Shown: positions 31,750 through 49,700 of the stretch, piece after piece | Position numbering within the stretch: position 1 is the stretch's first letter | Layout: each line of letters starts with the position of its first letter | NCBI GenBank assembly: GCA_963820525.1 | Contig: CAWGAA010000003.1 | Location: 480,001 to 544,000, forward strand | Length of the DNA: 64,000 nt | Origin: an uncultured Spirochaetota bacterium | Lineage (GTDB): Bacteria > Spirochaetota > Spirochaetia > SZUA-6 > Fen-1364 | Direction of reading: 5' to 3' | The notes under the pieces: model-generated | What the model was told of the DNA's origin: nothing | Database searches by the model: none | Seen by the model: the letters and a program-made list of their open reading frames with translations, nothing else | Made by a program: the position numbers and the translations under genes

Positions 31750-31777
31750 GAGGCTGCGCTGGGGGGGCGCTCCCCGG

Positions 31778-32182
31778 TTACGGCAGGATGTTCTCCAATC
31801 CCGCGTAGATTATGACGGCCGGTATCGCGAGTCCGATGACGGCATGGGTGCCGGTATAATAAATCGCCTCGTTATGCCTGCCATTGGCGAGCGCGTCGGT
31901 TTCCAGGAATCCCAGGACGATCTGGGCGGCCATGAGCGAGACATGCGTAAAAAAGGCGTAACGGTGGATATCGCTCTTCTTCAGCTTCCCCGGAGTCGAT
32001 GAGGTCATCATGGAGAGGCCGGTAAGGGCATCTCCGATGTAAAGCGTTTCACCCGCGGCGACAAGGCCGACATGCCACCACCGCAAGTCCTGATGGCTGT
32101 TCCAGATCGTAGACATCTGGTTGAAGTCTCCCTCGCTTGCTAGGCCGCCTTCGGTGCCGTTGGGGTGGATGACGTTCTTCAT
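31778..32182 (-). CDS. Small membrane protein with His residues in TM helices (possibly N-truncated)
   Basis: WWHVG, IHRYAFFTHVSL, THAVIG; GGAG before ATG 32182. Confidence 0.5.
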   Translation of the reverse strand: MKNVIHPNGTEGGLASEGDFNQMSTIWNSHQDLRWWHVGLVAAGETLYIGDALTGLSMMTSSTPGKLKKSDIHRYAFFTHVSLMAAQIVLGFLETDALANGRHNEAIYYTGTHAVIGLAIPAVIIYAGLENILP

Positions 32183-32253
32183 GTCTTGACTCCCGTGAAA
32201 AAGATATTCCATCTTTATCAATGGTGAAGCGCAACAATCCCAGGCGGCAGCCG

Positions 32254-33258
32254 ATGCTGAAGGCATTCCTCATCGCCATCGTCCCCCTTTCTTTTTTCCT
32301 TGGCTGTGCCAGCCTCGTCCCCGTCGAGACAACCATGCCCAGCGAAATCGACATGACCGGATTGCGAACGATCGCGGTGCTTCCATTCACATATCCCGCC
32401 CTGGATCACGGCAGTGCGGCCATGGAGACCAGCCTCCAGTATGCCGCTGACCTTGCTTTGGACCGCCCAACTGACCGCCACCGCGAGCAGCAGGCTGTTG
32501 CCCGCTACGCGACGAATCATTTCATCGGGCTGCTTGAGAACACGGGCCATTTCACGATCGTCGACCTCCAAACCATACTCCAGGCGGCGGCCAAAACTGA
32601 AAATGCCGGCCTGAGCCCGCAGGAACTGGGCCGGGCGCTTGGCGTCGATGCTCTTATCACCGGCAGCATCACGCATATAACCGCAAAGGAACATGAAGAA
32701 TCGATTGCCCAAAATGACAAGTACGGCAACACTTCCTACTCTTCAATATTCTGGAAAAGAGCCGAGATCCAGGTCGACTATAGCGTTCTGGATATCAAGA
32801 CAAATCGACGTGTCGGGACACGGAGCTTCAAAGGCGATCAGACTCTCAGCGCGGACAGAGTTCCGCTTTTTCCTTCGGACCAGAAGATGATTCAGGAGAT
32901 ACTGGACCGGATCCTCTCCCCGGTTCCCCGTCAGCTTGCTCCCTTCACGGTGACTGAAAACCGCGCCCTTCTCGCCGACGCCACAAATGACCCGGAAATG
33001 AAAAAGCTGATCCGGCTCGTCGACAAGAAAATGTATTCCGAGGCGCTTGAGGGGTATTTGAAGATCTGGAGCTCGACCCACAACGTCGCAGCGGGCTACA
33101 ACGCGGCTATTCTGCGTGAAGCGAGCGGCGACATTGACGGCGCTGTCAGTCTCATGAGCGAAGTCGCCGCCTCGACTCACAACCAGAAAGCGCTCAAAGA
33201 AGCAGACAGGCTGAAGAATACGAAGAGCGAAAGGGAAGCCGCCGCGGCCGAGATGTAA
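32254..33258 (+). CDS. Lipoprotein, CsgG/TolB-N-like domain plus TPR-like C-terminus
   Basis: Lipobox FLGC; IAVLPF, LGVDALITGSI; AAGYNAAILREASGD. Confidence 0.7.
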   Translation: MLKAFLIAIVPLSFFLGCASLVPVETTMPSEIDMTGLRTIAVLPFTYPALDHGSAAMETSLQYAADLALDRPTDRHREQQAVARYATNHFIGLLENTGHFTIVDLQTILQAAAKTENAGLSPQELGRALGVDALITGSITHITAKEHEESIAQNDKYGNTSYSSIFWKRAEIQVDYSVLDIKTNRRVGTRSFKGDQTLSADRVPLFPSDQKMIQEILDRILSPVPRQLAPFTVTENRALLADATNDPEMKKLIRLVDKKMYSEALEGYLKIWSSTHNVAAGYNAAILREASGDIDGAVSLMSEVAASTHNQKALKEADRLKNTKSEREAAAAEM

Positions 33259-33295
33259 GCTCGCGGGCCGGCGCCGAGGCGCGCTGCAGTAAAGC

Positions 33296-36200
33296 TCACG
33301 GCGTCGAAGGATTGCCCATGCGCACGACGATCCCGTGCTTGACCAGGCCGCGGTCGAGGGGGATCACGCCGTCTCGAGCCCGCCGGCCGTCGATTTCCAC
33401 CCAGGACACACCCCGCTCTACGCCTTCCGGGTTCTCGACCTGGATATCGTAGATCGCCTCACCGTGACGATAGCGCACATGGAAACCATTCCACCAGCCG
33501 GGGATGACAGGCTCCACGCGCATTCCGTTTCCGCGCACTTTCAAGCCCAGGATCTCTTCGACCCATGCCCGATACATCAATGCCGCCGAGCCCGTATACC
33601 AGGACCAGCCTCCAAGGCCGATCCGTCCGGCCAACCGGCACACATCCGCCGCCACCGCGTAGGGTTCCACCGTATAGCGCCGGACCGCCTGCTCGTCGCG
33701 CGCGAGCTCGATCGGGTTGAGCATTCGAAGGATTTTCGCCGCGCGGGTGCCATCCCCTCGACGCGCCATGGCCATGGCGAGCCACAGGGCAGCGTGAGTG
33801 TACTGGCCTCCATTCTCCCGCACCCCCGGGGGATAGGCCTGGATGTAGCCGGGCGCAGGCGCCGACCGGTCGAAAGGCGGCGCGAAAAGCAGCACCAATC
33901 CTTCGTCATCGCGAACGAGCTCCTTCCACGCGGATTCCAGAGCATGCTCCGCGCGGAGCCTTTCGGCGGCGCCCGAAAGCCACGCCCATGATTGCGGCAA
34001 GGAATCGATCCGCGCCTCGGTATTCCTCGAAGAGCCGAGAGGGGATCCGTCATCGAAGATCCCTCGAAGATACCATTCGCCGTCCCAGGCTGCCTGCTCG
34101 ATGCGCTGAATCAGCGCCCTCTTGTCCCGTTGGTAGGTCCGGCTTATATCGATTCGACCCAGCACCTCAGACAACTCGGACATCCCTTGAAGGACATCCA
34201 CCAGGAACCACGCCAACCAGACGCTCTCCCCCTTGCCTCCGCTGCCCACGAGGTTCATCCCATCGTTCCAGTCCCCCGCCCCCATCAGCGGCAGCCCATG
34301 GGGCCCGATCGTCAGCCCACGCGTGACGGCGCGCCGGCAGTGCTCGAACAGCGTGGAGCGTTCGAGGGCAACCTCCGGCGTGAAGAATAGTTCGTGCTGA
34401 TCCTCCCTGAGCTCGGGGCCGTCGAGGAAGGGCACTTCGGCACGCAGGATGTCTCCATCTCCCGTGATCCGCACGTAGTGAGCCACGACATAGGGCAGCC
34501 ACAAGAGGTCGTCCGAAATGCGCGTGCGGATGCCCGAGCCGCCCGGAGGGTGCCACCAGTGCTGGACGTCGCCTTCCCTGAACTGTCGGCTCGCCGCGAG
34601 CAGGATGTGCTCGCGCGCGAGATCGGCAGACGCATACACGAGCGCCAAGACATCCTGGAGCTGATCGCGGAAGCCGAAGGCGCCGCCGGACTGGTAGAAG
34701 GCGGTACGCCCCCAGATCCGGCAGCTCAGGTCCTGGTACAAAAGCCATCGGTTGATCAGGAAGTCCGCCGCGAGCTCGGGGGTGTGCACCTCGATGGTCC
34801 CCAAAAGCGCATCCCACCACGATTTTGTCCTCGCCAATGCGGCCTCGATCTTCGGGCGTTCCCGGAAGGCGAGAACCATCCCGCGGGCCCCCTCCAGCGA
34901 CTCGGCCTGACCCACCATGCTCGTGATCTCGGCCCCTGCACCGGGGGCGATTTCAAGCTTCACCTGAAGCGCCGCGCACGGGTCCAGTCCCGCCCCCGTC
35001 CTTCGGGAAAGCGCCGCCCGCTCCATCGCGACCGGGGCATCCAGCGTGCGGTTGCGTCCGAGAAAGAACGTGCGGTCGCCGCTGTAGGACTGGGCAGGCG
35101 GGTCGATGGCCGCGAAGGCGACCCGATTCGCATATTCGGGGTGGTAGCGATTGAAGGCCATCAGCGCCCCGATGTCGTCATCCCAGGCGGTCACGACGTG
35201 CATCTGTGAGGTCTCGGGGTGCTCGCCGAGCACCCATTCAACGTAATAAGTCACCGAGAGGGTGCGGGGCCGCCCGGAGTCGTTTTTCAACCGCAGCCTC
35301 TGCAGCTTGATCGGCCGTCCTCCTCTCTCATCCATTGGAACAAAGACGGTCAGCTCCTGATCGATCCCGTTGCTGTTGTGCTCGAAGACCGTGTACCCGG
35401 CTCCATGCCTCGCCCGATATGCGGTCTGCTCGCGAATCGGCGACGGGGTCGGGGTCCAAAAAAGACCCGTCTCCTCGTCCCGTATGTACAGCACCTCGGA
35501 GGCCGGGTCCATGACGGGGTCATTCGACCAGGGCGTCAGGCGATTGCGTTGGCTGTTGCCATACCATGTAAAGCCGGAGCCCGTTTCGCTCACCAGGGTC
35601 CCGAAGGTCGGGTTGGCGATGACGTTCACCCAGGGTGCCGGGGTGTGAGTGCCCGAGCCGAGATATATCGCGTATTCGCGGCCGTCCGGAGTAAAACCAC
35701 CCAGGCCGTTGAAATAGGGCAGCTCCAAAAAGGGCAGCGGAGATGAAGGCTCCTCGGGAGCGCGTTTCCTGGCGATGGGTTCCTGTTGGTCGGGAACTTC
35801 AGCGGGCACGCCCAACTGCTGGGGCAGCGGGCCACGGGCCGCTACAAGCACCACGCTCGCGGCAGCCATGAGGAGCGTCAGGTCTTCCGCGGGGATTTGC
35901 TCCGCGCTGCGCAGGAAGATCCCGCCCGGTCGATCCCTGCCCGTATACGTCGAGTGGGCCTGGATCAGGCCCTCGAGCCGTTCGTTGAGCGGCCGCTCAT
36001 AGGTACGTGTCTCCTCGTTGAGGATCACCAGGTCCGCCATCAACCCGTGCATTCTCCAATAGGCATGCCCCTGAAGCATCTGCCGAACCAGGCTGATGTC
36101 CCGCGCCTCGCTGATGGTGACCAGGGCGATCGGCAGGTCCCCCGAGATCCCATAGGGCCAGAGACCGGCCTGGCCCTTGCCATTTTCCTTGATGCGCTCG

Positions 36201-39200
36201 GCGGCTGACCGCAGGAGCGGATTCGGATACAGCAGGGCGCCGGCGAGCTGCTGGAAACGGCGAGCCTCGTCCGGCTGGATGCGCAGCACGCGCAGCTCAA
36301 ACTGGGCGGCTGCCCAGGCGAAATCCAGGGCACGATCGATGGAGTGGGGATTGCCGTACTTGTCCATCAGCCCCAGGACCTGCTCCCGCGTTTCGCCGGC
36401 GGCAAGGACAAGGGAAACCTCCACGCGCTGGCCGGGACTCAAGTTCAGGCGCCTCCGCAGGCTGAGGATGGGATCCAGGACGTTCCCCTGTGTGTTGCCC
36501 ATCTCCCGCATGCCTCCCACGGGATTGGCGAGGGTCCGTCCCCGGCCGATGAACCGGCGGCGGTCCGTCTCGAATTGCAGGGCCTCCTCCCCGCCGTTTT
36601 CGAGCGTCAGGCGATGCGCGACATAGATGGGCGGAGCGTCTTCCCCTCGAGGCCGCCGGAATGCCAGAAGCGCCTGCTTGAGAGGCACCGCCTCGGTTTG
36701 GATGAAAAGCTTGTTGAATGCCGGATGCTGCCGGTCGGCAGCATGCGGCGTCATCGCCAGCTCGATATAGCTTGTGAGATCGAGGCGGCGGGTGCGAACG
36801 GAGCGATTGATCAGAGTGACCCGCCGGATTTCCAGGTCATCTTCGGGGGAGACGACGAGCTCCGTTCGGGTTTGAATCCCGCTATCGGTGCGCCGGTACA
36901 CGGCCCGATCGAGAGCGAAGCTGGCTGAATATCCCTCAACCTCTCCGCCGCAGGGCTGATAGGCTGTGGACCACAATCCATCGGTGTCGACGTCATGGAT
37001 GTAGCAGAAGGTTCCCCATGAATCCCGAGTCCGGTCCGATCTCCAGCGCGTTATCTCGTGATTGCCCCACTGGCTGTATCCCCCGCCGGCGTTCGTAACC
37101 ATCACGCCGTAGCGGCCGTTGCTGAGAAGCTGCGTTTTCGGCGTGTCGGTATGCGGAGTGTCGAACGTGCTCACCGAGGGTGCGACCCCTCCGACGCTTT
37201 CCGTCGTGAGCGCGCGCTCACGCGTCGAGATGTGATACAAGGGAGGCTGGACCGGGACGCGTTCATGGAGCAAAGGCTCAACGGCCCGCACACGCGCGTC
37301 GGCGTGGAACCGGCGCCTGACTGGGCCGTCATGGAGGAAATTGGAGAGCGACAGGAGACTCATCCCTTGGTGATGCGCCATGTAGGCCTGGACGACCACT
37401 CCCCGCTCGCCCTTCCGCGCTGTTTGGCGGCTGAAATCAATCGCCTCGTAGTATCCGTAATCGCCGAGCAGACCCAAGCGGACCAGCCGTTTCAGGTTCC
37501 GCACGGTCTTGAGCGGTGCAATGGTGACCGCCAGCAGGGTGGCATAGGGCGCGACAACCACCTTTTCCTCCAGACCGCGTTTCAAAGCCAGCTCGGGAAC
37601 GCCAAAAGCCCTGTACTGGTAGGTCTTTGTGAGGTCCAGATCTCCAAAAGCCGACTCCGATATTCCCCACGGCACTCGATGCCGGTGACCGTAGGCCATC
37701 TGGATATCCAGGGCTTCCCGCGCCGCCTTATCGAGAAGCGTGTTCCCGCGAGAGCGTTGGAAAATCAGCGGCATCAGATACTCGAACATCGTCCCGGTCC
37801 AGCTGAGAAGAACCCGGCGCCGGCCCACAGCCGAGTACGGGCGGCTCATTGAGAACCAGTGATCGAAGGGGACATCCCCCCTGGCGATGGCGATGAAGCT
37901 TCCCAGCCGCGCCTCTGCGGCCAGGAGGTCGTAGTAGGCACCATCCAGGCGGTCTTCGGAAACGTTGAAACCGATGCAGAAAAGCCGCCGCTCGGGATCA
38001 TACAGGAAGCGCATGTTGATCGCGTCGGATAACGCACGGCAGTCCCGAATGAGACGTTCGGCCGCGCCGAGGATTTCACCGGCCAGCCAGCGCGACTTGG
38101 AGAACTCCTCCAGCAGACGGTCAAGCCACGCGAGGAGAGGAGCGGCGGCCGCGGGAGCCGCCTCCCGGATCCCCTGAAGCACCGCAATGCAGCCGATGCG
38201 CCCGTTTGCCAGGTCTGCGAGCGAAGGCGCCCGGGAGAGATCCCGGCGGATGGCGTCCACGGCCGCTGGACCGAGCGGCGCGACCTCCTCTTCCGTTTTC
38301 TCGGCGAGGATTTCCATCCAGGCGAGATAGCGATCCGCTATATTCAGCCAGGCCGATACCTGCCCTTCCACCTGTCGGGACCAATAGACGGCTTCAGCTT
38401 CACCGTGGGGGGATTTTTGCGCTGCATCGGCGATGCTCTTCACCGTCTGCGCAGACCGCCGCAACAGGCGGAGGCAATCCGTGAGGCGGGCCGGCGGGGC
38501 CTCCCATGTGCTCGCGAGGGCAATTCCTTTCCGGCCCTCGACCTTGTGAAGGATTTCCGCGGTATCCCGCAGACCTGAAAAAGCGCGCCCATCGAGGACC
38601 GGCCCCTGGAGCAGCTCCTCCAGCCCATGTTCCAGGACCCACAGGGCCCCCAGCAGGTTTCCGCTGTCAACGGCGGAGACGTAGCGCGGCTCCAGGGGGG
38701 TCAGGGATCGAACATCGTACCAATTCAGCAGATGGCCCTGGAAGCGTTCCAACCTGCCGATCGTCTCCATGCTCCGTATCAGCTTCTCGACAAGCTGATC
38801 CGCCGTGATATAGCCGAAATCGGACGCGGCCAAGGCGCTCACCATCCACAGCCCGATGTTGGTTGGACTGGTGCGCATTGCCAGCTGGTTCTGCGGAGAG
38901 ACCTGGTAGTTATCGGGGGGCAGCCAGGAGGTCTCGGCGCCGACAAAATCCGCGAAGTACCGCCAGGTTCGGCGCGCAACCTGCCTGAGGAAGCGAACAG
39001 CCGTTTCGGGCAACCGGACGCGACGCTGCCTGGCCCGCGGCTTCAGGTTCAGGAGCCGACCGACCAGAGGAGAGAGGAACCACAGAGAAAGCCATGGGAC
39101 GGCGAACGCCAGGCTGGATGGCATCCAGCGCATCACCGCCCATGCCATAATCACGCTGAAGACGCTCACCAGTCCCATCGACACGCCATAAATGGGAAAC

Positions 39201-42200
39201 CGGTCAGGGGCAGCCCCGGTCAGCACCTGAGCCGAAGTCCACTGGAGCATTCTCCGATGGGAGACGTAGCGGCGATAAACGGCCAGAAGAATTGCATCCA
39301 GGGCCAGCGCGGTCTGGTGCGGAAGCAATGCGGCGTCCACGACCGCCCGAAGCACGTCGTGCGCGACCTTCCAGATCGAGAAGCCCGAGAGCCCCCGGCG
39401 AGTCGTCACCATGGTGAAACGCTGCACCATGGGCTGGAAAAGGAGCTGCACGGTGACCACAAGCGTCGAGATCCAGCCGATTTGGGGGGACGTCAGCCAG
39501 GAAGCCAGGAGCAAGCCCAGACTGGCCGCGGGCACCAGGCTGCGGCGCAAGTTGTCGAGAATCTTCCAGCGGTTGAACCGGGAAAGCGGATTCGGCTCAG
39601 GCCGTCCCCCCCGTCCGGGAACCCGCGACGATATCCACTGCGCGATTTGCCAATCGCCCCGAATCCAACGATGCTGCCGTTTTGTATACCCCAGGTAGTT
39701 GCGGGGAAACTCGTCATAGAGCTCGATATCGCTGGCCAGGCCCACGCGCACGTGGGCTCCTTCTATCAGATCGTGGCTCAGCAGGCGCCCGTCAGGGAAC
39801 CTTCCGGAAAGCACGCGACTGAAAGCGCGCACATCGTAGATGCCCTTGCCGTAATACGAGCCTTCTCCGGTCAGGTCCTGCTGGACGTCCGAGACGGCCC
39901 TGGTGTACGGATCGATTCCAACGGCGTCCGCGAAGAGCCGGCTGAAGAAGGAGGCGCTCGTGCTCGGCAGCGAAGGGCTCACGCGCGGTTGGATGACGGC
40001 GTAGGTGCCGGCGAGAACTCTTCCCGCGGCGTCGAAGCGCGGCCGGTTGAGAGGGTGCGCCAGGGTCTCGATCAGGCGGCGGGCGGCGCCAAGCGGCAGC
40101 TGGGTGTCGCTGTCGAGCGTGATGACGAATCTCACATTGGACAGATCATCCTGATTGCCGACGTATACCAGACGCCCTGCTCCTTCGGGCCGCGTTCCCT
40201 CGATCAGCCGGTTCAGCTCTTCGAGCTTTCCGCGTTTGCGCTCCCAACCGATGAACTTCCGCTCCGATTCGCTCCAGGTGCGATCGCGATGAAAGAGCAG
40301 GAAGCGCTCTCCTCCATGGCGACGGTTGAGGGCTTCGAGGCTTTCGATCGCGGCGCCGAGCAGTTGCGCGTCATCCTCACGATGCGCCCGATCCGCGTCC
40401 GTGTAGTCCGTGAAGAGGCTGAAGAGCAGATTGCTTTCCTTGTTGGCCAGGTAGCGGACCTCCAGCTTCTCGGCCTCTTCCCGGATCGTCTCGACGTCAC
40501 TCAGCAGAACGGGCACGACGATCAGCGTTCGGAATGCATCGGGTATTCCGAAGGCTTTGAAATCCATTTTGGCAAGGGGGCGGGGCGGCAGGAGCCGTGT
40601 CGCGAGATAGTTCAAGACCTCGATCGCGAGTTGACTGGCGGGAATCAGCAGCAGGAGCGCTATCAAGAGCCGAATCCCGGGCGCGAGTCCCCCAAGACCA
40701 AGCACTACGATCGGGACGACGAAGACGGCGGAAAAGAAACCGAGCGCCGTAAAGTACACAAGGGAATGATGGCGGTAGACCCAATGGAGGAGTCTGAAAT
40801 GGAGCCGCTCGCGGCAGTGCAGACTCTCGGCCAGCTCGCGCCTGCCCTCGTCGATCAGAAAACTTCCGACGTGGGTTCGCCGCTCATCCTCCGTCGGTCC
40901 GGCATGAGCGCGCGCTGCCAGCGCGATGGCCCCTTCTGCCACCTTGTCCTCCGCCCGACCGGAGCGGCGCGCAAGCTCTTCTACCGCCCGGCGATAGCGA
41001 TCGCGCGTGCCGAAATCCATTGAAGAATACACGCCGGACGGATCCGTTCGAAGCAGCAGTTCCACATGGCTCTGATTCTCGAAAATCTGCCTCCAATCCA
41101 GCAGCGCCAACTGGCGCAGGCTGGTGACGGCATGAGAGACGGAGATCTGATCCTTGGTTCTGCGGTTTTGCTCGCGCATGTTGAGCTCGCTCAGGGATTG
41201 GCGGAACGTGCGCTCCAGCCAGCTCTGGACCAGCACCAGCACGGCTTCTTCGTCGTAGAGATGATCGACCAGTTGGGTCACGAAATGGGGACTCGGACCC
41301 GGTTGGGCAAGGACAAGCTCGGACAGGATCAAGAAGAGATGGCTGGAGCCTCGCCGATTGGCCGAAATCAGCCGGTTCGCCCAGAAGTCGGCCATCTCCC
41401 GCTCGCGCAGCTCGGTCAAGGCGCCGACGGCGACATTCTGGATTTTCTCGATCAACGCAATGCGCAGCATCTGAGGGACAGCCCAAAGCTCGCCAATCGT
41501 CAGCGGGCTGACGGATTGGTACGCGCCGATGAAGGCCTGGATGTTTTCCCGATCCAGGCGAAACTCAACGTCGGAGACAAGCTCCCACGCCAAATCGTAG
41601 ATGCGCGGAAGCCCCCCAAAAGCTCCGCTGGAGAGTACCGGCATTTGGCGGTAATAGTGCCGAGGCAGGTTCGCTATCGCGTCGCGGGCGTTGCTCTCGA
41701 CAACGTACTCGTTGTCGAGGATCCACTCCGCCGTTGGAGGTGCTCCCTGTTCCAGACGGCTCGCCTCGGAGAGGTCCTCGCACGCGCGATGGATCCATTG
41801 ACGGGCCTCTTCGAGCCGGAGAAGAAGCGGCGCGCTCCGCTTGGGCTCCTGGTCGATACGGTGCTCGAAGGCCAGGCGCTGGGCATTCTCCCGGAGCAGC
41901 GCCTGCGTGGGGGGCACCACGGGACCCCGCGCGGCTCGCGGTAAACCCTCGTGCTTCGGATGAAGGGCGAAGACCGGCGGAGGGATGGGGCCGCTTTCTC
42001 GAAGCGCCGCCACGGCGAAATGCAGCCTCCCGACCGGCGCCTGTAGGATCACGACGGCCTCATTGGGCATCAGCCGGCGGGCGTGATCCTCAAGCAGCTC
42101 TTGCGCGACACCGTATTTCGATCGCCGTATCCACACGCACCCGACACAGATCCCGACCAATCCGCCTGCCAGGCCAGGGATCATGGGAGAAAGGCTCCCG

Positions 42201-42439
42201 ATCAGCGTCGGCCATTGCAGGGGGACGGATATGATGCCGGCGAGAACCCCGAGCAGAGCTCCGCCCATGAGAGCCCCGACAGCGCGGCGCATGGGAAAGC
42301 GGTCCCGGGTGAATACGCCCCCGCCGGCGGTCTTTCGCAGCAGGGCGACGCGGCGGAAGCCGCGCCTTCGCAGTACCGTGAGCGCGCTTCGGGCCTCCTC
42401 CTCATTCGCGTAGTAGCCGGCAAGAATGCCTACCGCCAT
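33296..42439 (-). CDS. ndvB: Cyclic beta-1,2-glucan synthase (Cgs/NdvB/ChvB type: GT84 + glucoamylase-like + GH94)
   Basis: EWILDN, GWERKRGKLEE, ITLDSDT, LSHDLIEG, RWIRGDWQ, GTMFEYLMP, QSGGAFGFRDQLQD, GDWNDGMN, RENGGQYTH. Confidence 0.92.
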   Translation of the reverse strand: MAVGILAGYYANEEEARSALTVLRRRGFRRVALLRKTAGGGVFTRDRFPMRRAVGALMGGALLGVLAGIISVPLQWPTLIGSLSPMIPGLAGGLVGICVGCVWIRRSKYGVAQELLEDHARRLMPNEAVVILQAPVGRLHFAVAALRESGPIPPPVFALHPKHEGLPRAARGPVVPPTQALLRENAQRLAFEHRIDQEPKRSAPLLLRLEEARQWIHRACEDLSEASRLEQGAPPTAEWILDNEYVVESNARDAIANLPRHYYRQMPVLSSGAFGGLPRIYDLAWELVSDVEFRLDRENIQAFIGAYQSVSPLTIGELWAVPQMLRIALIEKIQNVAVGALTELREREMADFWANRLISANRRGSSHLFLILSELVLAQPGPSPHFVTQLVDHLYDEEAVLVLVQSWLERTFRQSLSELNMREQNRRTKDQISVSHAVTSLRQLALLDWRQIFENQSHVELLLRTDPSGVYSSMDFGTRDRYRRAVEELARRSGRAEDKVAEGAIALAARAHAGPTEDERRTHVGSFLIDEGRRELAESLHCRERLHFRLLHWVYRHHSLVYFTALGFFSAVFVVPIVVLGLGGLAPGIRLLIALLLLIPASQLAIEVLNYLATRLLPPRPLAKMDFKAFGIPDAFRTLIVVPVLLSDVETIREEAEKLEVRYLANKESNLLFSLFTDYTDADRAHREDDAQLLGAAIESLEALNRRHGGERFLLFHRDRTWSESERKFIGWERKRGKLEELNRLIEGTRPEGAGRLVYVGNQDDLSNVRFVITLDSDTQLPLGAARRLIETLAHPLNRPRFDAAGRVLAGTYAVIQPRVSPSLPSTSASFFSRLFADAVGIDPYTRAVSDVQQDLTGEGSYYGKGIYDVRAFSRVLSGRFPDGRLLSHDLIEGAHVRVGLASDIELYDEFPRNYLGYTKRQHRWIRGDWQIAQWISSRVPGRGGRPEPNPLSRFNRWKILDNLRRSLVPAASLGLLLASWLTSPQIGWISTLVVTVQLLFQPMVQRFTMVTTRRGLSGFSIWKVAHDVLRAVVDAALLPHQTALALDAILLAVYRRYVSHRRMLQWTSAQVLTGAAPDRFPIYGVSMGLVSVFSVIMAWAVMRWMPSSLAFAVPWLSLWFLSPLVGRLLNLKPRARQRRVRLPETAVRFLRQVARRTWRYFADFVGAETSWLPPDNYQVSPQNQLAMRTSPTNIGLWMVSALAASDFGYITADQLVEKLIRSMETIGRLERFQGHLLNWYDVRSLTPLEPRYVSAVDSGNLLGALWVLEHGLEELLQGPVLDGRAFSGLRDTAEILHKVEGRKGIALASTWEAPPARLTDCLRLLRRSAQTVKSIADAAQKSPHGEAEAVYWSRQVEGQVSAWLNIADRYLAWMEILAEKTEEEVAPLGPAAVDAIRRDLSRAPSLADLANGRIGCIAVLQGIREAAPAAAAPLLAWLDRLLEEFSKSRWLAGEILGAAERLIRDCRALSDAINMRFLYDPERRLFCIGFNVSEDRLDGAYYDLLAAEARLGSFIAIARGDVPFDHWFSMSRPYSAVGRRRVLLSWTGTMFEYLMPLIFQRSRGNTLLDKAAREALDIQMAYGHRHRVPWGISESAFGDLDLTKTYQYRAFGVPELALKRGLEEKVVVAPYATLLAVTIAPLKTVRNLKRLVRLGLLGDYGYYEAIDFSRQTARKGERGVVVQAYMAHHQGMSLLSLSNFLHDGPVRRRFHADARVRAVEPLLHERVPVQPPLYHISTRERALTTESVGGVAPSVSTFDTPHTDTPKTQLLSNGRYGVMVTNAGGGYSQWGNHEITRWRSDRTRDSWGTFCYIHDVDTDGLWSTAYQPCGGEVEGYSASFALDRAVYRRTDSGIQTRTELVVSPEDDLEIRRVTLINRSVRTRRLDLTSYIELAMTPHAADRQHPAFNKLFIQTEAVPLKQALLAFRRPRGEDAPPIYVAHRLTLENGGEEALQFETDRRRFIGRGRTLANPVGGMREMGNTQGNVLDPILSLRRRLNLSPGQRVEVSLVLAAGETREQVLGLMDKYGNPHSIDRALDFAWAAAQFELRVLRIQPDEARRFQQLAGALLYPNPLLRSAAERIKENGKGQAGLWPYGISGDLPIALVTISEARDISLVRQMLQGHAYWRMHGLMADLVILNEETRTYERPLNERLEGLIQAHSTYTGRDRPGGIFLRSAEQIPAEDLTLLMAAASVVLVAARGPLPQQLGVPAEVPDQQEPIARKRAPEEPSSPLPFLELPYFNGLGGFTPDGREYAIYLGSGTHTPAPWVNVIANPTFGTLVSETGSGFTWYGNSQRNRLTPWSNDPVMDPASEVLYIRDEETGLFWTPTPSPIREQTAYRARHGAGYTVFEHNSNGIDQELTVFVPMDERGGRPIKLQRLRLKNDSGRPRTLSVTYYVEWVLGEHPETSQMHVVTAWDDDIGALMAFNRYHPEYANRVAFAAIDPPAQSYSGDRTFFLGRNRTLDAPVAMERAALSRRTGAGLDPCAALQVKLEIAPGAGAEITSMVGQAESLEGARGMVLAFRERPKIEAALARTKSWWDALLGTIEVHTPELAADFLINRWLLYQDLSCRIWGRTAFYQSGGAFGFRDQLQDVLALVYASADLAREHILLAASRQFREGDVQHWWHPPGGSGIRTRISDDLLWLPYVVAHYVRITGDGDILRAEVPFLDGPELREDQHELFFTPEVALERSTLFEHCRRAVTRGLTIGPHGLPLMGAGDWNDGMNLVGSGGKGESVWLAWFLVDVLQGMSELSEVLGRIDISRTYQRDKRALIQRIEQAAWDGEWYLRGIFDDGSPLGSSRNTEARIDSLPQSWAWLSGAAERLRAEHALESAWKELVRDDEGLVLLFAPPFDRSAPAPGYIQAYPPGVRENGGQYTHAALWLAMAMARRGDGTRAAKILRMLNPIELARDEQAVRRYTVEPYAVAADVCRLAGRIGLGGWSWYTGSAALMYRAWVEEILGLKVRGNGMRVEPVIPGWWNGFHVRYRHGEAIYDIQVENPEGVERGVSWVEIDGRRARDGVIPLDRGLVKHGIVVRMGNPSTP

Positions 42440-42599
42440 ACGACGAGGACCGCCGCGAAGGACGCACGAGAGCTCAGCACGTTGTTCTCTCCTTTCGCGA
42501 AGGTTCGATTGTACGCGAATAGCTCATCAACGGATATGGCGTGCTCCCTTTCGGCGCGGAACCGATTCCCTCCCGCACGCTGAGAGCCGCAGGAACGGC

Positions 42600-43106
42600 T
42601 CAGGTGAGTTTCAATTCCACTTTCTGGCCGAATGGAAGCGCGCACAGTCGCGCCAAGGCGTCGGAGAACTCGGGCAGAATGAAGCTATTCGCCATGCGTG
42701 AGGAGCTGCCGATATTGCCGCAGCATGCGGAGGCGGAACCATGCACAAGCTTGCCGTCGTTGCCGAGCTCTTTATCGAAGGCGGTGACGAAATCCGAGCG
42801 TATTCCCGCAGAATCCACGGAGTACGGCGCCGTTCCAAAGGTGACGACGATGAGACCGGATACCATGCAGTCGGTGATGCCTCCGAATCTATTCGCCAGG
42901 TCGGAGGTCTGCCCCATGCGTGCCGATATCTGTCCGGGTGTCTCTCCGCGCACCATTGCGAGCACGTATCCAATATCGGCGTTGCGTAATCGGGAGAGAT
43001 CGGTTACCGATTTGTTATCTGAAATCAGATCATCGATCTGGGGCAGCGATAGAAAGCGGGAGAATATGCGTCGTATCCTGCGGCGATCCAGGAAATTCCG
43101 AATCAT
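42600..43106 (-). CDS. Stand-alone degenerate class III nucleotidyl cyclase-like protein
   Basis: GGITD...VTFG, HG..A.CGNIGS..R and ARL match the cyclase fold, but the metal Asp residues are missing; strong GGAGG RBS. Confidence 0.6.
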   Translation of the reverse strand: MIRNFLDRRRIRRIFSRFLSLPQIDDLISDNKSVTDLSRLRNADIGYVLAMVRGETPGQISARMGQTSDLANRFGGITDCMVSGLIVVTFGTAPYSVDSAGIRSDFVTAFDKELGNDGKLVHGSASACCGNIGSSSRMANSFILPEFSDALARLCALPFGQKVELKLT

Positions 43107-43218
43107 TCCTTACCTCCCGGGGACACGCGCGAAAGGGCGCTTCGCCGCCCCGAGTGAAAAGCCCGACTTTCTCTGGAATTTCCTGCGGCGACAAGGCTCT
43201 GCCGCCCAAACCCGGCTC

Positions 43219-43485
43219 CTATTGATTGGCTTTTATGATTCTTTCGAGTTTGTCATGCAGATCGCTATACCCCTTATGGAGATTGGCATCTTCTGTGCTC
43301 TTGACTTCTCCTTCGAGGCTTTCCAGGAGCGTATTCATTTTTTCCAGGGGCAATTTCACAAGAAAGGCATTGCCATACATCACCGTAACATTCAGTTTTC
43401 GTTCCAACTCTTTATCAAGAGCTTGTATGTTCAGGATCAGCTCTCTTTCGCTTCGCGTCAACTCGATCGGGATGAGCTTTTCCAT
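43219..43485 (-). CDS. 88-aa hypothetical protein
   Basis: AT-richer ORF with AAGG RBS, co-oriented between mgsA and the cyclase-like gene. Confidence 0.6.
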   Translation of the reverse strand: MEKLIPIELTRSERELILNIQALDKELERKLNVTVMYGNAFLVKLPLEKMNTLLESLEGEVKSTEDANLHKGYSDLHDKLERIIKANQ

Positions 43486-43533
43486 ACCTTAGATAATATC
43501 CGTTTCTGCGAAATCCATCAAGCGGGGCTTTCC

Positions 43534-44016
43534 TCAAGCGTTTCCTGGCTCTTCGCCTCTGGCAATCCTGCGAGCGCGGTATTCCTGGTAATCGGGAACA
43601 AGACGATCATATTCTCCATCCATGAGGGGAGAGGAGATCATGAAATCGGCGGAAGCCCTGTTGCAGGCAATCGGAATATTCCACACCACCGCCATTCGCA
43701 GGAGTGCCTTGACATCGGGATCGTGGGGCTGCGGCTCGAGCGGATCCCAAAAAAAGATCAGAAAATCGATCTCGTCATCGACGATCCTGGCGCCGATTTG
43801 CTGATCGCCTCCCAAGGGTCCGCTTTGAAGCTTCGTGATTTTAAAGCCCAGTTCGCGTTCCAGAATCACTCCCGTGGTGCCTGTCGCATACACCTTGTGA
43901 TGTGCCAGGAGATCGCGGTTGAATTTGGCCCATTCGACGAGGTCCGCTTTTTTATTGTCGTGGGCTACCAGTGCGATTTTTTTGTCATGCTCCATGGCGA
44001 TTTTATTGTAATTCAT
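43534..44016 (-). CDS. mgsA: Methylglyoxal synthase
   Basis: [39 protein letters not shown]; start ATG 44016. Confidence 0.96.
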
Positions 44017-44237
44017 ATGATGCCTTTCAGTCCTTTTTCCGGTGTGGCGAAACGATTCCTCTCCGGGTGATCGCACGGCCCTCCCCAAAAGGCGATGATC
44101 CGCGACAGAGTCTGAGAGGCTGCGCGCGCCGAGGTGAAGTTTAGTGCAGAGGCGGCCCCCCGACAAGGGCGAAGCCCGCTCATCACGCCGCGGATCGGCA
44201 CAACGAGCGCCCTTTTTGCCGCGATCCGGCGATGCCC

Positions 44238-44266
44238 TTGACACGTCGATGAAAATAGGCTACTTT
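44238..44266 (+). promoter_or_regulatory. Sigma70-type promoter of the recombinase operon
   Basis: TTGACA (44238-44243), N17, TACTTT (44261-44266), followed by an AT-rich tract. Confidence 0.6.
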
Positions 44267-44307
44267 AATGTTAATTAATGGATTATAGAATCGACGGGGA
44301 GAAGATC

Positions 44308-45273
44308 ATGGAGAAGAAGATAGAGATCGCGGAGGCGAGGCGAAAGCTTAACCCGGCCCTTGTCTATGCGTCCCGATTGACCAAGACGGGGAAGCCCGCG
44401 GTCGAAAACATGCTGCGGATCGCGGCCAGGTGGATCGCGGAAGCCGAGGGTCTTCCGACATCGGCCATCGAGGCCGGTCTCTGGCAGCGGATGACGCTCG
44501 AGCACATGAAGGCGATCCGGGCAAGGGCACTCGAGACGGGCTACTCTCCGGCGTCCGTCAACCTCATGCTCTCGGCCATCCGGGGTACCGTGCGGGCCGC
44601 ATGGCGCATGGGGCTGATGAGGGCGGAGGAGCTCATACGCATAACAGAGGTGCCGAACGTCAAGGCCAAGAGCCAGCCATCGGGAAGGAAGATCACCGCG
44701 CGCGAGCTGTCCGCACTCATAGAGAGAATCGACACGGTCACTGCATCGGGAAAACGCGACGCGGCGGTGATCAGCCTGGCCTATTGCGCGGGGATGAGGC
44801 GGCGAGAGATCGCTTCGCTCGGCATGGAGAATATCCGCGAAACGGCAAAAGCGATCGAGGTCCGCGTACCGTCGCGGAGCGGGAAAAAGGCCCGAACATC
44901 GTATCTCGACAATGGCGGGGCCGATGCGCTGTGGGATTACCTGGAGTCACGGGGGAGGAATCCGGGAGCGCTCTTCGTAACGTCACGGAAGAGCGGAGCG
45001 CTCCTTGACGAGGCACTCGGGGAACACGCCGTCTATGAAGTCATCAAACGATGCGGAGAGCGGGCCGGCGTTGAGCTCACGCCGCATGACTTTCGAAGGA
45101 CCTTCGTCTCCCATCTCCTCGACCAGGGAGCGGATCTCACGGTGGTGGCGGGAATGGCCGGACACAGCAGCGTACAGACGACGGCACGCTATGACAGCCG
45201 GGGTGAGGGAGTGAAGAAGGCGGCGGCGAGGCTTCCGCAATTGCCCTATCGCAGGAAGCGGAGGAGCTCGTGA
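44308..45273 (+). CDS. Tyrosine recombinase, catalytic residues intact
   Basis: SPASVN core-binding region; GMRRREI (R), GKK (K), HDFRR (HxxR), GHSSVQTTARY (H, Y). Confidence 0.92.
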   Translation: MEKKIEIAEARRKLNPALVYASRLTKTGKPAVENMLRIAARWIAEAEGLPTSAIEAGLWQRMTLEHMKAIRARALETGYSPASVNLMLSAIRGTVRAAWRMGLMRAEELIRITEVPNVKAKSQPSGRKITARELSALIERIDTVTASGKRDAAVISLAYCAGMRRREIASLGMENIRETAKAIEVRVPSRSGKKARTSYLDNGGADALWDYLESRGRNPGALFVTSRKSGALLDEALGEHAVYEVIKRCGERAGVELTPHDFRRTFVSHLLDQGADLTVVAGMAGHSSVQTTARYDSRGEGVKKAAARLPQLPYRRKRRSS

Positions 45274-45515
45274 GGGCCGCGGAGAGCAGTCTGAAAGCGC
45301 ACACGCCGTGCATGGGCACTCATGTTTTCGACTGGGGGGAAAAATCGCTGGAGAAGGGGCCGCCCGAGGGGCTGAACTGCGCGTGCGGGATGTTCGAGTT
45401 CCACTACACGACCTGTGAATGCGGGTGCGGCCGGAGAATCATGTCGTTGCGTTTCAACAAGAGAGGATCCCGACATCCTCTGCCGCTCGAAGTCGAAGCC
45501 GCGGTCCTGAGATAG
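45270..45515 (+). CDS. 81-aa Cys/His-rich putative zinc-binding protein
   Basis: GTG overlaps the recombinase stop (GTGA); CxxxH, CAC, CECGC. Confidence 0.55.
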   Translation: MRAAESSLKAHTPCMGTHVFDWGEKSLEKGPPEGLNCACGMFEFHYTTCECGCGRRIMSLRFNKRGSRHPLPLEVEAAVLR

Positions 45516-45530
45516 GAAGGGAGCAGATGC

Positions 45531-46454
45531 ATGGGTGAAATATCGAAACGATCCGGTAGGCCTCGGCCAGGCAGCTCGAGCCCCGTCCTGGTTTATCTGG
45601 CGGGCCTAGAGGAGAATGGCCGGCCTCTGATGCGGCGGGCTCTCAATGGCGTTGCGCGGCGTCTTGGTTATAGAAGCGCGCGAGCTGCCCCATGGACCGA
45701 GCTGCGGGCCGAGCATGTCGCGGCGCTGCGGACGTGGCTCTCTGATTCTTTCAAACCGGCGAGGGTAAACCGCTGCCTGTCGGCGATCAAGGGAACCATG
45801 AAGATAGCCTGGCAGCTCGGGCAGATCGATGGAGGGAGGCTTGTTGAAATTCTCAAGCTGAAAGCGGTGAGGAGAGGTTCTCATCCATACGGGAGATCCC
45901 TATCCGCTCATGAGATTCATGCCCTCATGGAGGCCTGCGCCGACGGGACATTCACGGGCAAGCGGGACCTGGCAGTCATCACTCTGGCGTACTGCGGAGG
46001 TCTCAGGAGGGCGGAGATGGCCGCGCTGAACGTCGACGATGTGAAAGCCGAGGCGGAGGCCTTCGTGATTCGGGTTCTCAGCAGAGGGCAACGAGAGTTT
46101 CTGGTTTCCATCGACGACGGCGGTGCCGAAGCCATTCGAGACTTCCTGACCGGGCGCGGGGAAGCGCCTGGCCCTCTGTTTTGCAGGGACAGGGAGAGCA
46201 AACCGTGTGAGCGCCTCACGGCCGATGGGCTTTTTGCGGTGCTCAGGGAGCGGGCACAGGCGGCAGGAGTAGAGGGCATGAGCCCCCACGACATGCGGCG
46301 CACGTTCGTCTCTGACAAGCTCGCAGCCAGCGTCGATGTTCTCACCGTTTCGGCCCTCACGGGACGCGGCGATCCGAATCATGGCGGCGGCGCCCCACGG
46401 AAGGCCGTAAAGAATCCGTCTCTTCCACTGGGGGCATGCCACGCCGCGCCATGA
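45531..46454 (+). CDS. Tyrosine recombinase paralog lacking the catalytic Tyr (dead or regulatory, or pseudogene)
   Basis: GLRRAE and HDMRR kept; GH changed to GR; 7-aa TTARYDS segment absent; GGGAG RBS; no stop or frameshift. Confidence 0.8.
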   Translation: MGEISKRSGRPRPGSSSPVLVYLAGLEENGRPLMRRALNGVARRLGYRSARAAPWTELRAEHVAALRTWLSDSFKPARVNRCLSAIKGTMKIAWQLGQIDGGRLVEILKLKAVRRGSHPYGRSLSAHEIHALMEACADGTFTGKRDLAVITLAYCGGLRRAEMAALNVDDVKAEAEAFVIRVLSRGQREFLVSIDDGGAEAIRDFLTGRGEAPGPLFCRDRESKPCERLTADGLFAVLRERAQAAGVEGMSPHDMRRTFVSDKLAASVDVLTVSALTGRGDPNHGGGAPRKAVKNPSLPLGACHAAP

Positions 46455-46478
46455 GCTTGCCGGCCAGGGCAAAGGAGC

Positions 46479-46778
46479 ATGCTGAAAATGGATGCGATCG
46501 AATTGGGCAAAAAAAGAGCGGAAGAGTTCATAACGGAGCAAATGCGGAGCCTCGACCGTGACAGTGGACTGTACTCTCTTCTTTGGTGGACGCCGGATCC
46601 GCTCGACCCGGATCGTGAAAGTACGCATGCGCAGATGACAGTGCCTCTGCGATTATACAAGGGAAACAGCTGGAGACTTGTCAAGTTTTTCAAATCGGAT
46701 CTTGACGACTGCGCTAAATCTCCGGAATTGCTTCAGAAATACGAAGAAGAAATAAGACAAGCTCTCATGGATCTCTAG
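46479..46778 (+). CDS. 99-aa hypothetical protein
   Basis: AAAGGAG RBS, AT-richer, 24 nt after the second recombinase. Confidence 0.65.
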   Translation: MLKMDAIELGKKRAEEFITEQMRSLDRDSGLYSLLWWTPDPLDPDRESTHAQMTVPLRLYKGNSWRLVKFFKSDLDDCAKSPELLQKYEEEIRQALMDL

Positions 46779-46794
46779 AAACGCTCACCGCCCC

Positions 46795-49700
46795 CTAGCG
46801 ATGCGAGAGCGGTATTTGAGCGAAGGCTTCGGGAGGCGCGGTCCCCAGGGAATCGGCAGCCACCGGCTGGAAGCGGGAAAGGATCTGGGCCTGGGATGGC
46901 TCGCCGCTCCAGGCCAGATCTACTATCCGCGTGGCGTTAGATCCCGGAAGCGCTCCACCCAACCGCCACTGTTCGGCGGCCTGCTTCACGTCACGAACCC
47001 TTCGAACCCCCGGGGACGGAAAGCCATCCTGACTCAACACCATGGCCGCGTAGCCCCACTGCGCGGGGGTGCCGCGTCCGGCGAAGAGTTTCTTCGGCAG
47101 GCTGATGACGACAATCCCCTTGGGAGCGTCCACCGTGGCTTTCGCCGGGCTTCCCGGCGCTTCCGAGGGCTTTCCCGATGCGTCCACCACGAACAGCTTC
47201 TGACTCCAGCCCTCCACCCAGACCGCGTAGTCCCAACCGTTCCCCTGCTCGAGGGCGGCATTGCGGCCTTCCAGGAGCATTCGCGACCCCGTGGCCTTGC
47301 CGGGGTCCGTATCGATGTAGATATCGAATGTCTGAATCGAGAGCCCGATCGCGGAGCCCCAGGGATTGTCGATGGGGGTCCGCATCGTGAAGGAGAAAAC
47401 AAGGTCGCGCTCCGTCTCGGCCGCCGTGAAACTCAGGATATCGAAGACGCCGGGCTTGAAGACGGGATCGAGGGGATACGTGTACGTGCCGGGACCGTTG
47501 TCGTCTCCCTGCGGATCCTCGACGGTCAAAAAAGGCTCGGCCTGGGCGGCAAGGGGCAGCACCACCCTCAGAGGACCGGACTCCGGCAGAAGCTGGGCAT
47601 CCCTTGTCCCCACGGAATAGGCGGCACGCGCGCGGACGGCGGAGCCCGGGGGAACCTCGCCTAAAAGATCGAGCGGCACCGCGCATTCCACGATCTTTCC
47701 GTCCACGGCCACGCTCTTCAGGTCCTTCAACCGCGCCCACTCCTGGTAGCGGCCCCGGCCGAATACGGAAAGCTGCCAGCTCCCCCCGGCTCCTGAAATC
47801 TCGATATACGCGGTGCTTCCGAAGCCAAGGACGGAAGAGTTCACCGTGAAAGGGCTCGAAGGCGCGCCGGGATCCCATTGCAGATAGACGCGCACCGCGC
47901 GCCCGGGAGCCGGGCTCAATGGCTCTTTCGCGTCGAGGCGGACGTACAGAAAGCTTCCATCGATTCCGAGATAAAGCGTCTGCAGAGCGTCGCCGCCGCG
48001 CGCCATCGCTCCACCGCGAAGCTCATAACGGGCCGCCTTGTCCCATTCGCCCACGGAAGCCTCCCCGTCTATGACGGGAGTGACGGCGGAATCGAGCGGC
48101 TTGGCCGCGGGGGCAGGCGAAAGCGGAATAATGGGCGCGCGGAGGAAATCCGGCGGCGCCCGCCCCAGAGCGGTGTAGACATTCGCCAAAAGCCACCTGA
48201 AAGAATCGTCGAAGTACGAATCGTTTCCCGAATCCTGGTCGTCACCGAACCACCAGAACCAGTCCGAGCCTTCGGCAAGGTACATGAAGTCGAGCGCGCG
48301 CTGGAGGCTTTTGGGGTCTGCTTTTTTTCTCTTGTACAGGTCGTATTCCGCCAGGTCCTTGCGCACCCGAGCCAGGTAGTTCCACGCCGTATTCTCCTCC
48401 GGCTCACCGATCCAGGTGGAGTAGTCCGGCGAAAACCATGCCCCCCACCAGAGGCTGTCCAGTCGTCGCTGCTCTGGGTACATCAAGAGATACTCGGAAA
48501 CCGTGATCGTGCGGACCGTCTCGCTTTCGGCCAGCCTGCGATACAAAGCGTCGAGGAACTCCTTGCCGTCGTTATCGTAGTTCTCCCAGGCGTTCTCTCC
48601 GTCCAGGATAATGCTCACAAGATGCGGCCCCTCTTTGCCGCCTGCGGAAAGCCTGGCACGGATATTCTCGAGCCTTCTCATGAAGTCGGCGGCCGCCTCT
48701 TCTCCCGGCGTGCCTGAGTATTCGAAGGCGATCAGGTCCGACAGCCTCTGGTCCCGGAATACCATGGCCACCGATGAGCCGTCACGGGAGTGAACGACGT
48801 ACGGACGGTAGAGGGCATCCGCCTCGTTCACGGTATCTGAAGCATCCCGGGTGAAGTCCCCGATGCCCAGCGATCTGGCGAGCACCTGCTCGCCGGAGGC
48901 CATCCAGTGGAAACCGGCATCGGCGACCATCTTCACGATCTCAGGGGCAACGGCGCCCTCAGCCGGCCAGAGGCCTGACGGCTTTCGTGAAAACCTGGCC
49001 TGGTACTCCGTGACGCTCCTGGCAAGCTGCCCCACCGCGTCGTTGGCGAATGAGTACCAATCCGGGAGGGCCGTGGTCGGGTCTCCCTTGGCTGCGAGTG
49101 AAGTGCTGTACAGAAGCGGCAGGATGGGATGCGCGTAGGGGGTGGTGATGACCTCGATCTGCCCCCTGTCCTGGAGCCTCTTGTGGATGGACACGATCTT
49201 CCTGATTACCTTCAACCCCTCAGCGAAGACGATGGCCTTGTCCGCCTCGGCGAAGCCCCTCCCCTTCTCCACCAGCGCGGCGAGGGGCTGTGCGGCCAGA
49301 GCATCGGGATCGAACCAGGCCAGGTTGAACCATACCTGGAGGTCGCGAATATCCTCGGTGGAAAACGAGGCGCGGGCGGCATCGATGGATCCCGCGGCCC
49401 CCGCCTTTGCCAGAAGCTCCGCATAGCGGGGGAAGCGCGAGATGACGTGGGCATGGTTGGCGTCGAAGAACCGCTCGAGGATGAACCGCTTCTCCACGGG
49501 CGTAAGGCGGTCCGCACGCTTTTCAGCCAGCTCCTGGTAGCGATCCTTGGCGCCCGAGGCGAAGTCATCGAGCTGGCGCAGCAGCACGGGGGTCAGGTTG
49601 ATGGTGGCGTGCACGGCTGGATAGCGCTCCAGCGTGGCCGCCATGTCGTAGTAGTCCTTGGTGGCGTGCACGCGCACCCACGGCCTGCTGTAGACGCCGC

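Follow-up and report, generated by a model that had tools for sequence, protein, structure and literature searches.

Int2, a tyrosine recombinase homologue without its catalytic tyrosine and very probably a selected, non-cleaving protein

The Int2 locus and its genes

The window analysed here, a stretch of 64,000 nucleotides from an uncultured Spirochaetota bacterium, carries four plus-strand genes behind a presumed promoter at 44238: a tyrosine recombinase homologue (Int1), an 81-residue open reading frame, a second recombinase homologue (Int2), and an open reading frame of 96-99 residues. The features of the locus are as follows.

33296-42439, minus strand: giant gene of 3047 residues with GH94 and glucoamylase domains (Pfam), a recurrent neighbour that marks the Int2 locus
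44238-44285, plus strand: presumed operon promoter (TTGACA at 44238-44243) and an overlapping 11-6-11 inverted repeat, from alignment of upstream regions
44278-45273, plus strand: Int1 (PF00589), from another branch of the same recombinase family; the true start may be the ATG at 44308
45270-45515, plus strand: small Cys/His-rich protein of 81 residues; overlaps the Int1 stop and is often directly upstream of Int2 in relatives
45531-46454, plus strand: Int2, 307 residues, tyrosine recombinase fold of core-binding (CB) and catalytic (CAT) domains (PF00589, E 4e-17), without His-III, the Tyr nucleophile and the C-terminal helix region
46365-46421, plus strand: relaxed segment of Int2, from the box-II glycine to the terminal Leu-Pro, with His-III replaced by Arg and a 7-codon in-frame gap near 46379/46380 (give or take 1-3 codons)
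46479-46778, plus strand: small protein of 96-99 residues, last gene of the presumed operon; homologues stand beside genes for a further recombinase, IntX, in relatives

The operon is flanked on one side by a divergent mgsA-like gene and the giant GH94 gene, which we take to be cyclic beta-1,2-glucan synthase-like, and on the other by an amylopullulanase-type GH57 gene. Neither small protein matched a Pfam or NCBIfam family, and an atlas search with the 81-residue protein gave no match scoring at least 0.9. This protein has a pN/pS of 0.30 (0.19-0.44, 10 copies); six cysteines and two histidines are invariant across 12 copies, which occur with and without Int2, and to judge from its sequence it is probably metal-binding. 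A predicted complex between it and Int2 scored 0.01 against a mark of 0.32, with the fold of the small partner itself uncertain. The sequencing runs that contain DNA of the locus come from wetland, sediment and soil, the named homologues of Int2 are from Spirochaetia, and in a single RNA run 0.05 of the sequence words were present.

The tyrosine segment in Int2 and its clade

Int2 and Int1 share 38% identity and both match PF00589. The spacing from the box-II glycine to the terminal proline is 21 in Int2; it is 28 in Int1, a value shared by 87 of 92 intact homologues. Seven residues are therefore missing in frame from Int2, and the missing span covers the position of the tyrosine. The first-pass annotation of this DNA had described an in-frame deletion with an open frame rather than a truncation, and the open 307-residue frame with its terminal proline at the shorter spacing bears this out. 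It had also reported a change of the second active-site histidine from GH to GR, which agrees with the arginine codon that we find at the His-III position (46365-46367). As for whether the 21 bp are truly absent, contigs from all four sequencing runs compared (four studies) span 46379 without the missing bases, and no insertion is listed anywhere over 44300-46457; the check rests on assembled contigs of other runs, not on raw reads. One of these contigs (X1) matches exactly over 46046-46456 and may derive from the source sample itself; the other three are from strains a few percent apart. The homologue P0121, from other assemblies and 96% identical to Int2, has the same gap. The gap is therefore real, and assembly error is ruled out as its cause.

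The remainder of the active site is largely kept. Int2 has Arg-I (R159), Glu-I (E162), His-II (H253) and Arg-II (R256), so the earlier statement that the arginine and the HxxR motif remain holds. The catalytic lysine is another matter, since the annotation had placed its loss at GKK/GQR, which is the wrong column: at the true column, which is lysine in 90 of 90 intact homologues, Int2 has R185 (a conservative replacement) and Int1 has S201. Arginine occurs at this position in 3.8% of the tyrosine recombinase superfamily (PMC2943603, Table 1). Against the NCBIfam XerC and XerD models Int2 scored 66-101 bits, where the cut-offs are 330-335, and all NCBIfam Xer models were far under their cut-off.

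The AlphaFold model of Int2 (118 sequences; pLDDT 87.6, with tail blocks at 53-69) has a complete two-domain fold with no helix between residues 277 and 299. Int2 thus has both the CB and the CAT domain of a tyrosine recombinase, and lacks the pairing of His or Trp at position III with Tyr by which an active one is recognized. Structurally the model comes closest to XerA (Z 18.9), Cre and XerH, and SroF and MrpR rank below them. In solved recombinases the equivalent segment consists of helix alphaM, which bears the tyrosine, and helix alphaN, which is swapped between subunits; XerA without alphaN is blocked in recombination and impaired in higher-order assembly (PMC3646895).

A protein search with Int2 gave 447 matches, the best 120 of which were listed, and we define the Int2 clade as the best 28 clusters, which are 53-100% identical to Int2 with E values of at most 1.2e-87, the next match being at 1.3e-60 among the matches listed. 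These 28 clusters form a single branch (SH-aLRT 100 for all 28; 100/100 when 10 of them were analysed without the tail). The intact genes closest to the branch lie on islands in related genomes (support 91/95, not starred). We considered a recent tandem duplication of Int1 as the origin of Int2 and rejected it: the AU test gave p 0.0011 against the tree joining the two (a quick LG+G4 tree of 35 rows, tail removed), and they lie on separate branches in the more careful tree of 28 rows.

Residues were tallied over 27 clade members and 90 intact homologues, leaving out P0020 and two near-duplicates. Among the 27 members, Arg-I is kept in 26, Glu-I in all, Lys in 23, His-II and Arg-II in all, and His-III in one. 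None of the 28 clade members has His-III together with Tyr, whereas 91 of 92 intact homologues do. Ahead of box II lies a helix of near-invariant, clade-specific sequence, with D232 in 27 of 27 members where 71 of 90 intact homologues have glutamine. Within Int2's own branch the lysine position reads R, R, K and E. In P0252, a clade member that looks decayed, box II is gone as well. Outside the clade, two of 148 further 50%-cluster representatives (P0280 and P0309) are likewise without His-III and Tyr.

The tail varies far more than the body. Twelve of the 28 clusters have the full length; the tails of the other 16 are shortened to one of nine lengths, with spacings of 11 to 26, and every one of them retains the terminal [FL]P motif in frame. 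In the 12 full-length members the residue at the tyrosine site is S, D, D, Y, Y, C, H, F, C, N, C and Y, and the non-tyrosine residues (S, D, C, H, F and N) are all six of the one-base neighbours of a Tyr codon. Five of the 28 clusters retain Tyr at its position, without His-III. The nearest relative of Int2, P0002 (76%), is full length and has serine at the site. The simplest order of events would be a loss of constraint first and the 21-bp deletion later. The claim that Int2 had lost precisely the seven residues carrying the tyrosine stands, then, in so far as seven residues are missing in frame and the tyrosine position is among them. Its precision does not, as the edge of the gap moves by 1-3 codons between alignments, relatives have lost 2-17 residues of this segment, and P0002 lost its tyrosine with no deletion at all. 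Nor is the deletion a peculiarity of one genome, as had been put forward as a possible objection, since loss in this segment is clade-wide.

The clade occurs in five of the 25 family genomes, one copy in each, with no stop within any of the five copies. In 67 other genomes of the order, many of them incomplete, no Int2 match of comparable score was found. Int2 is a single chromosomal copy per genome, adjoining the GH94 gene. A phage or plasmid location for the clade was considered and rejected, as plasmid and phage records all match at less than 60% identity and a search of viral contigs gave no Int2-clade match. The parent family (PF00589, simple CB and CAT domains, a TT.RYDRR tail) is, by comparison, annotated as 'site-specific integrase' on many plasmids, with 2256 plasmid records matching Int2 below 60%. 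Its intact members are 40-49% identical to Int2 and share its fold, but the Int2 clade does not preserve their His-III, their Tyr or the conserved helix after it.

We estimated selection from nine loci (window excluded; 36 pairs), using a simple counting estimate of pN/pS without a tree model and 95% intervals from a column bootstrap. In the Int2 clade pN/pS is 0.13 (0.08-0.18) for the core-binding domain, 0.27 (0.21-0.33) for the catalytic core and 0.80 (0.61-1.07) for the tail; four disjoint pairs gave 0.10, 0.28 and 1.08. The same tail in intact controls gave 0.09 (five loci), 0.03 (four loci) and 0.29 (IntX, eight loci). Where Int2 and P0121 differ, the 20-residue tail holds three of the 12 differences (Fisher p 0.036). 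Eleven of 13 strain-level differences in Int2 are synonymous, among the 40 of 102 differences listed. The segment from His-III into the tail evolves neutrally, which is loss of constraint within a selected protein. With five of 28 clusters keeping Tyr, one-base neighbours filling the site, and a tail interval that includes 1, the pattern is one of relaxation and not of selection for removal of the tyrosine. We are thus fairly sure that Int2 is a selected, non-cleaving protein. The first-pass suggestion of a non-cleaving binder kept by selection is upheld by the purifying selection on the body.

Alternatively, Int2 might be a defunct integrase on the way to being lost, one that has escaped frame disruption by chance or through weak selection against truncated products. 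Its patchy occurrence (5 of 25), its loss from related modules, the decayed P0252 and the piecemeal deletion of neighbours at locus L067 (see below) would all fit such a relic. A core-binding pN/pS of 0.10-0.13 is, however, as low as in active relatives, and the absence of stops in five genome copies, together with the in-frame terminal motif in 16 of 16 shortened tails at identities that fall to about 51% within the clade, also goes against it. The selection analysis largely refutes this reading, which we consider improbable.

Neighbouring recombinases and candidate DNA sites

We compared neighbourhoods at 18 loci (L052-L069), some of them duplicates, seven of which end too early for an upstream recombinase to be judged. 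In seven distinct loci the IntX gene lies within about 3 kb upstream of Int2 on the same strand, often with SPFH, ankyrin and small Cys-rich genes between the two. No Int1-type gene was found at any of the 18 loci. At L052 there is no recombinase between the GH94 gene and Int2, which stands directly behind a conserved promoter motif. The GH94 gene adjoins Int2 in six distinct loci besides the window; a tight coupling of the two was nonetheless rejected, as GH94 is present in 20 of 25 family genomes and Int2 in five. Genomes carry several IntX modules, at different positions, and in all four of the further loci examined they occur without Int2. In the source genome IntX is on another contig. 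On a short contig from an organism further removed, an Int1 tail adjoins the small Cys-rich gene, so the arrangement in the window is not unique. At L067 (7680-8070) a remnant of the ankyrin gene, its 3' end, still stands upstream of Int2, which indicates that the genes between IntX and Int2 have been deleted piecemeal.

These neighbourhoods bear on whether Int2 is an accessory subunit or modulator of a co-transcribed intact recombinase (mostly IntX, here Int1), in the manner of the GinC and Tfp proteins discussed below. It could occupy or bend part of the recombination site, or poison the synapse so that the module stays put. In the window and in seven other distinct loci Int2 does have a Tyr-bearing recombinase on its own strand, no more than about 3 kb upstream, the IntX module occurs in several places and copies as a mobile or once-mobile unit would, and tandem two-domain fusions exist in another lineage (P0253 and P0316). 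GinC, moreover, is essential for GInt excision and integration (PMC5385486, PMC10214605). On the other hand, the partner would have to switch between two distant families (Int1 and IntX are 22-23% identical), L052 has no upstream recombinase and the source genome's IntX is elsewhere, IntX modules persist without Int2, and the helix through which subunits make contact is the decaying part of Int2. We found no ends of an element either: a search of 31000-48000 for terminal or flanking repeats or an invertible segment gave chance-level repeats only, and no excision-type joints were seen in the contigs of the four runs, such contigs being prone to drop rare forms. On balance an accessory role seems to us possible but rather doubtful.

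Three further observations concern the recombinases themselves. P0253 and P0316 are 725-residue tandem fusions of two whole family domains with Tyr in each half, Lys or Met at His-II, and Trp at Arg-I in one half. L039 has, 2 kb from an intact parent-family gene, another such recombinase gene (11055-12011) whose frame changes just past box II. A subclade of IntX, six of 21 copies (L107, L108, L109, L110, L112 and L120), has lost Tyr, with body pN/pS of 0.14 and 0.20 and a tail pN/pS in the Tyr-less copies of 0.52 against 0.28, the intervals overlapping; on this sequence pattern it is apparently a second, parallel domestication. Most of the Tyr-less IntX copies stand behind a gene that, to judge from its sequence, encodes an RNA-binding protein.

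Int1 itself keeps Arg-I, His-II, Arg-II, His-III and Tyr, with serine at the conserved lysine column, and on its residues is not clearly active. It has four relatives, two of them conspecific. All four retain His-III and Tyr and none has lysine at the conserved column, although three have a lysine one or two residues on; P0139 is also without Arg-I and His-II. The clade, P0138 and P0139 included, sits on a long stem with eroding catalytic residues. The long stem, the altered lysine column in all four members and the changed Arg-I and His-II of P0139 suggest that the Int1 clade may be turning non-catalytic too. As no other fetched Int2 locus has Int1 adjoining and the catalytic set of Int1 is incomplete, a specific Int1/Int2 heteromer is weakly supported, and a pair of active Int1 and dead Int2 is not the general arrangement.

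The partly complementary losses raise a further possibility, namely that Int2 supplies the Arg-Lys-His-Arg half of a split active site, bound to one half-site, while a co-transcribed partner such as a member of the Int1 clade donates Tyr in trans. The Int2 clade keeps Arg-I, Lys, His-II and Arg-II and is without Tyr; the Int1 clade has His-III and Tyr in four of four and the conserved-column Lys in none, with P0139 lacking Arg-I and His-II; and the IntX genes beside Int2 have Gln in place of His-II. In Flp, His-III belongs to the activating side, and it is lost from Int2, contrary to what such a division would need. Gln at His-II is general in IntX copies with or without Int2, the lysine position in Int2's branch is inconstant, and so is the partner. 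Trans cleavage is documented for Flp and SSV1 Int, between identical subunits, but XerA, the closest solved relative of Int2, cleaves in cis (PMC3646895). Cre, for its part, tolerates most substitutions at His-II (PMC2943603). We regard a split active site as highly improbable; if true, it would make the pair a bacterial recombinase that is obligately heteromeric and cleaves in trans.

In intact members of the parent family an 11-6-11 inverted repeat overlies the -10 region of the gene's own promoter (L039, L041-L048 and the window). Arm matches in the 10 sites come to 67 of 110, against 30.5 +/- 4.5 in shuffled sequence, a significance that is overstated because the register was picked by eye. 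The window site has arms at 44258-44268 and 44275-44285 that match at 6 of 11 positions; a consensus promoter scan did not list the presumed promoter at 44238. Some of the left arms, as we take it, resemble the XerD arm of dif. The repeat is likely the recombination or autoregulation site of the parent family, going by its sequence and position. A matrix of family sites applied genome-wide found no set of sites, and the window's own site was outside the top 12. The best genome-wide match (score 28; G000:C3:849314, L127) is AT-rich with no recombinase gene called nearby, and may be a leftover site or chance.

IntX promoters share another motif, of 16 bases, found in 18 of 25 genomes against two matches in total for the reversed control; it lies over the -10, and part of it is simply an extended -10 element. 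The motif (L138-L166, and L051 upstream of 7082) stands over the -10 of nearly every IntX gene. It also persists at orphan promoters without IntX (L139, L151, L159, L162 and L165), which include those of two genomes whose sole IntX match is Tyr-less, and it is a possible operator of a small IntX regulon. A genome-wide regulon was considered and rejected, since neither the Int1-family nor the IntX matrix gave a set of sites and the one clear copy of the IntX motif is upstream of IntX. Neither candidate motif is multi-copy in the source genome, and neither search identified a binding site for Int2. The upstream promoter motif differs by lineage, of the Int1 type in the window and the IntX type elsewhere, so that no one autoregulatory target can fit all Int2 loci.

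Possible roles of Int2

Our preferred reading, to which we give a probability of about 0.5, is that Int2 is a domesticated DNA-binding clamp acting as a stand-alone regulator, whether a repressor or an architectural factor, as MrpR and SroF are. Int2 would be the non-cleaving descendant of a plasmid- or island-borne recombinase of the resolvase type, one that keeps the two-domain fold and, under purifying selection, the residues that bind phosphate, and in which His-III through the Tyr helix and the next helix has become a dispensable linker, drifting and shortening in frame. Lacking Tyr, it would form no phosphotyrosine bond, and lacking the C-terminal helix it would take no part in the helix swap that holds recombination tetramers, so that it would clamp DNA as a monomer or dimer without cutting it. 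None of the Cre variants with substitutions at Tyr is active, and all but one still bind DNA (PMC2943603). Candidate targets would be the core-like operator over the -10 of its own operon and the divergent GH94 promoter. We favour a repressor or architectural role because the family sits on its own promoters, the partner gene varies, and MrpR and SroF show the route; the inverted repeats over those promoters could offer a ready path from recombinase to repressor. Counting against the regulator are the patchiness of Int2 (5 of 25) and the IntX modules that persist without it. This reading explains least well why Int2 keeps Arg-I, His-II and Arg-II. MrpR has lost its Arg and His residues, and their presence in Int2 would suit an accessory or shared-active-site role no less than a regulator. 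Retention need not mean catalysis, however, as Arg173 and His289 of Cre also shape the bent, inactive complex (PMC2943603). The probability left by these readings lies with roles outside those considered.

Reuse of dead tyrosine recombinases for binding is of a known kind, as seen in MrpR/SroF, Tfp/GinC and TnsF. MrpR/SroF, the master repressor of SPbeta-like phages (PMC10516654; bioRxiv 10.1101/2025.11.27.690993), has like Int2 a full CB and CAT fold of about 320 residues and small neighbouring proteins, and it has no recombinase activity; repression is demonstrated for MrpR/SroF and is a candidate role for Int2. Int2 compares with the SroF-DNA structure at Z 14.2 (rmsd 5.4, 255 aligned) and with MrpR at Z 11.9, as against 18.9 with XerA; it is 11% identical to MrpR/SroF in the structural alignment and branches inside another family, pointing to an independent origin. 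SPbeta MrpR keeps Lys and Tyr and has lost the Arg and His residues, the reverse of Int2, and MrpR/SroF is phage-borne where Int2 is chromosomal.

GinC of the GInts and Tfp of the SE elements (PMC5385486 and PMC10214605) have a recombinase fold with an incomplete catalytic set and are, like Int2, co-transcribed with intact recombinases and a small protein. GInt and SE elements are, however, described there as fixed four-gene operons with two intact recombinases and defined ends, whereas Int2 loci have at most one Tyr-bearing recombinase, of varying kind, with no ends found; and Tfp is without the whole RHRY motif, part of which Int2 keeps. TnsF of the Tn6022-like Tn7 transposons (PMC10293859) is, like Int2, an inactivated tyrosine recombinase derivative, in its case put to use in DNA binding; no counterpart of its zinc fingers, its tandem core-binding domain or its cooperation with Tn7 proteins is seen for Int2. 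RIT elements have three adjacent overlapping recombinase genes, and Int2 loci have at most two recombinase genes. In the parts of the literature searched we found no description of the Int2 clade or of a function for its parent family, though the datasets of PMC8138268 may include the family.

What differs in the Int2 clade is that the activating residues are kept while the nucleophile end drifts, along with the parallel loss in IntX. A few phages and transposons are known to use dead recombinases for DNA binding. The Int2 clade shows such a conversion at an early stage: intact sister genes are available for comparison, the nucleophile end is drifting, and conservation still holds for the rest of the active site. 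Since databases name Int2-type proteins 'integrase' or 'XerD', such loci would be wrongly marked as active mobile elements. Int2 and IntX together offer a testable series from a recombinase on its own promoter to a regulator, and with it a way to ask what role Arg-I, His-II and Arg-II have once cleavage is gone.
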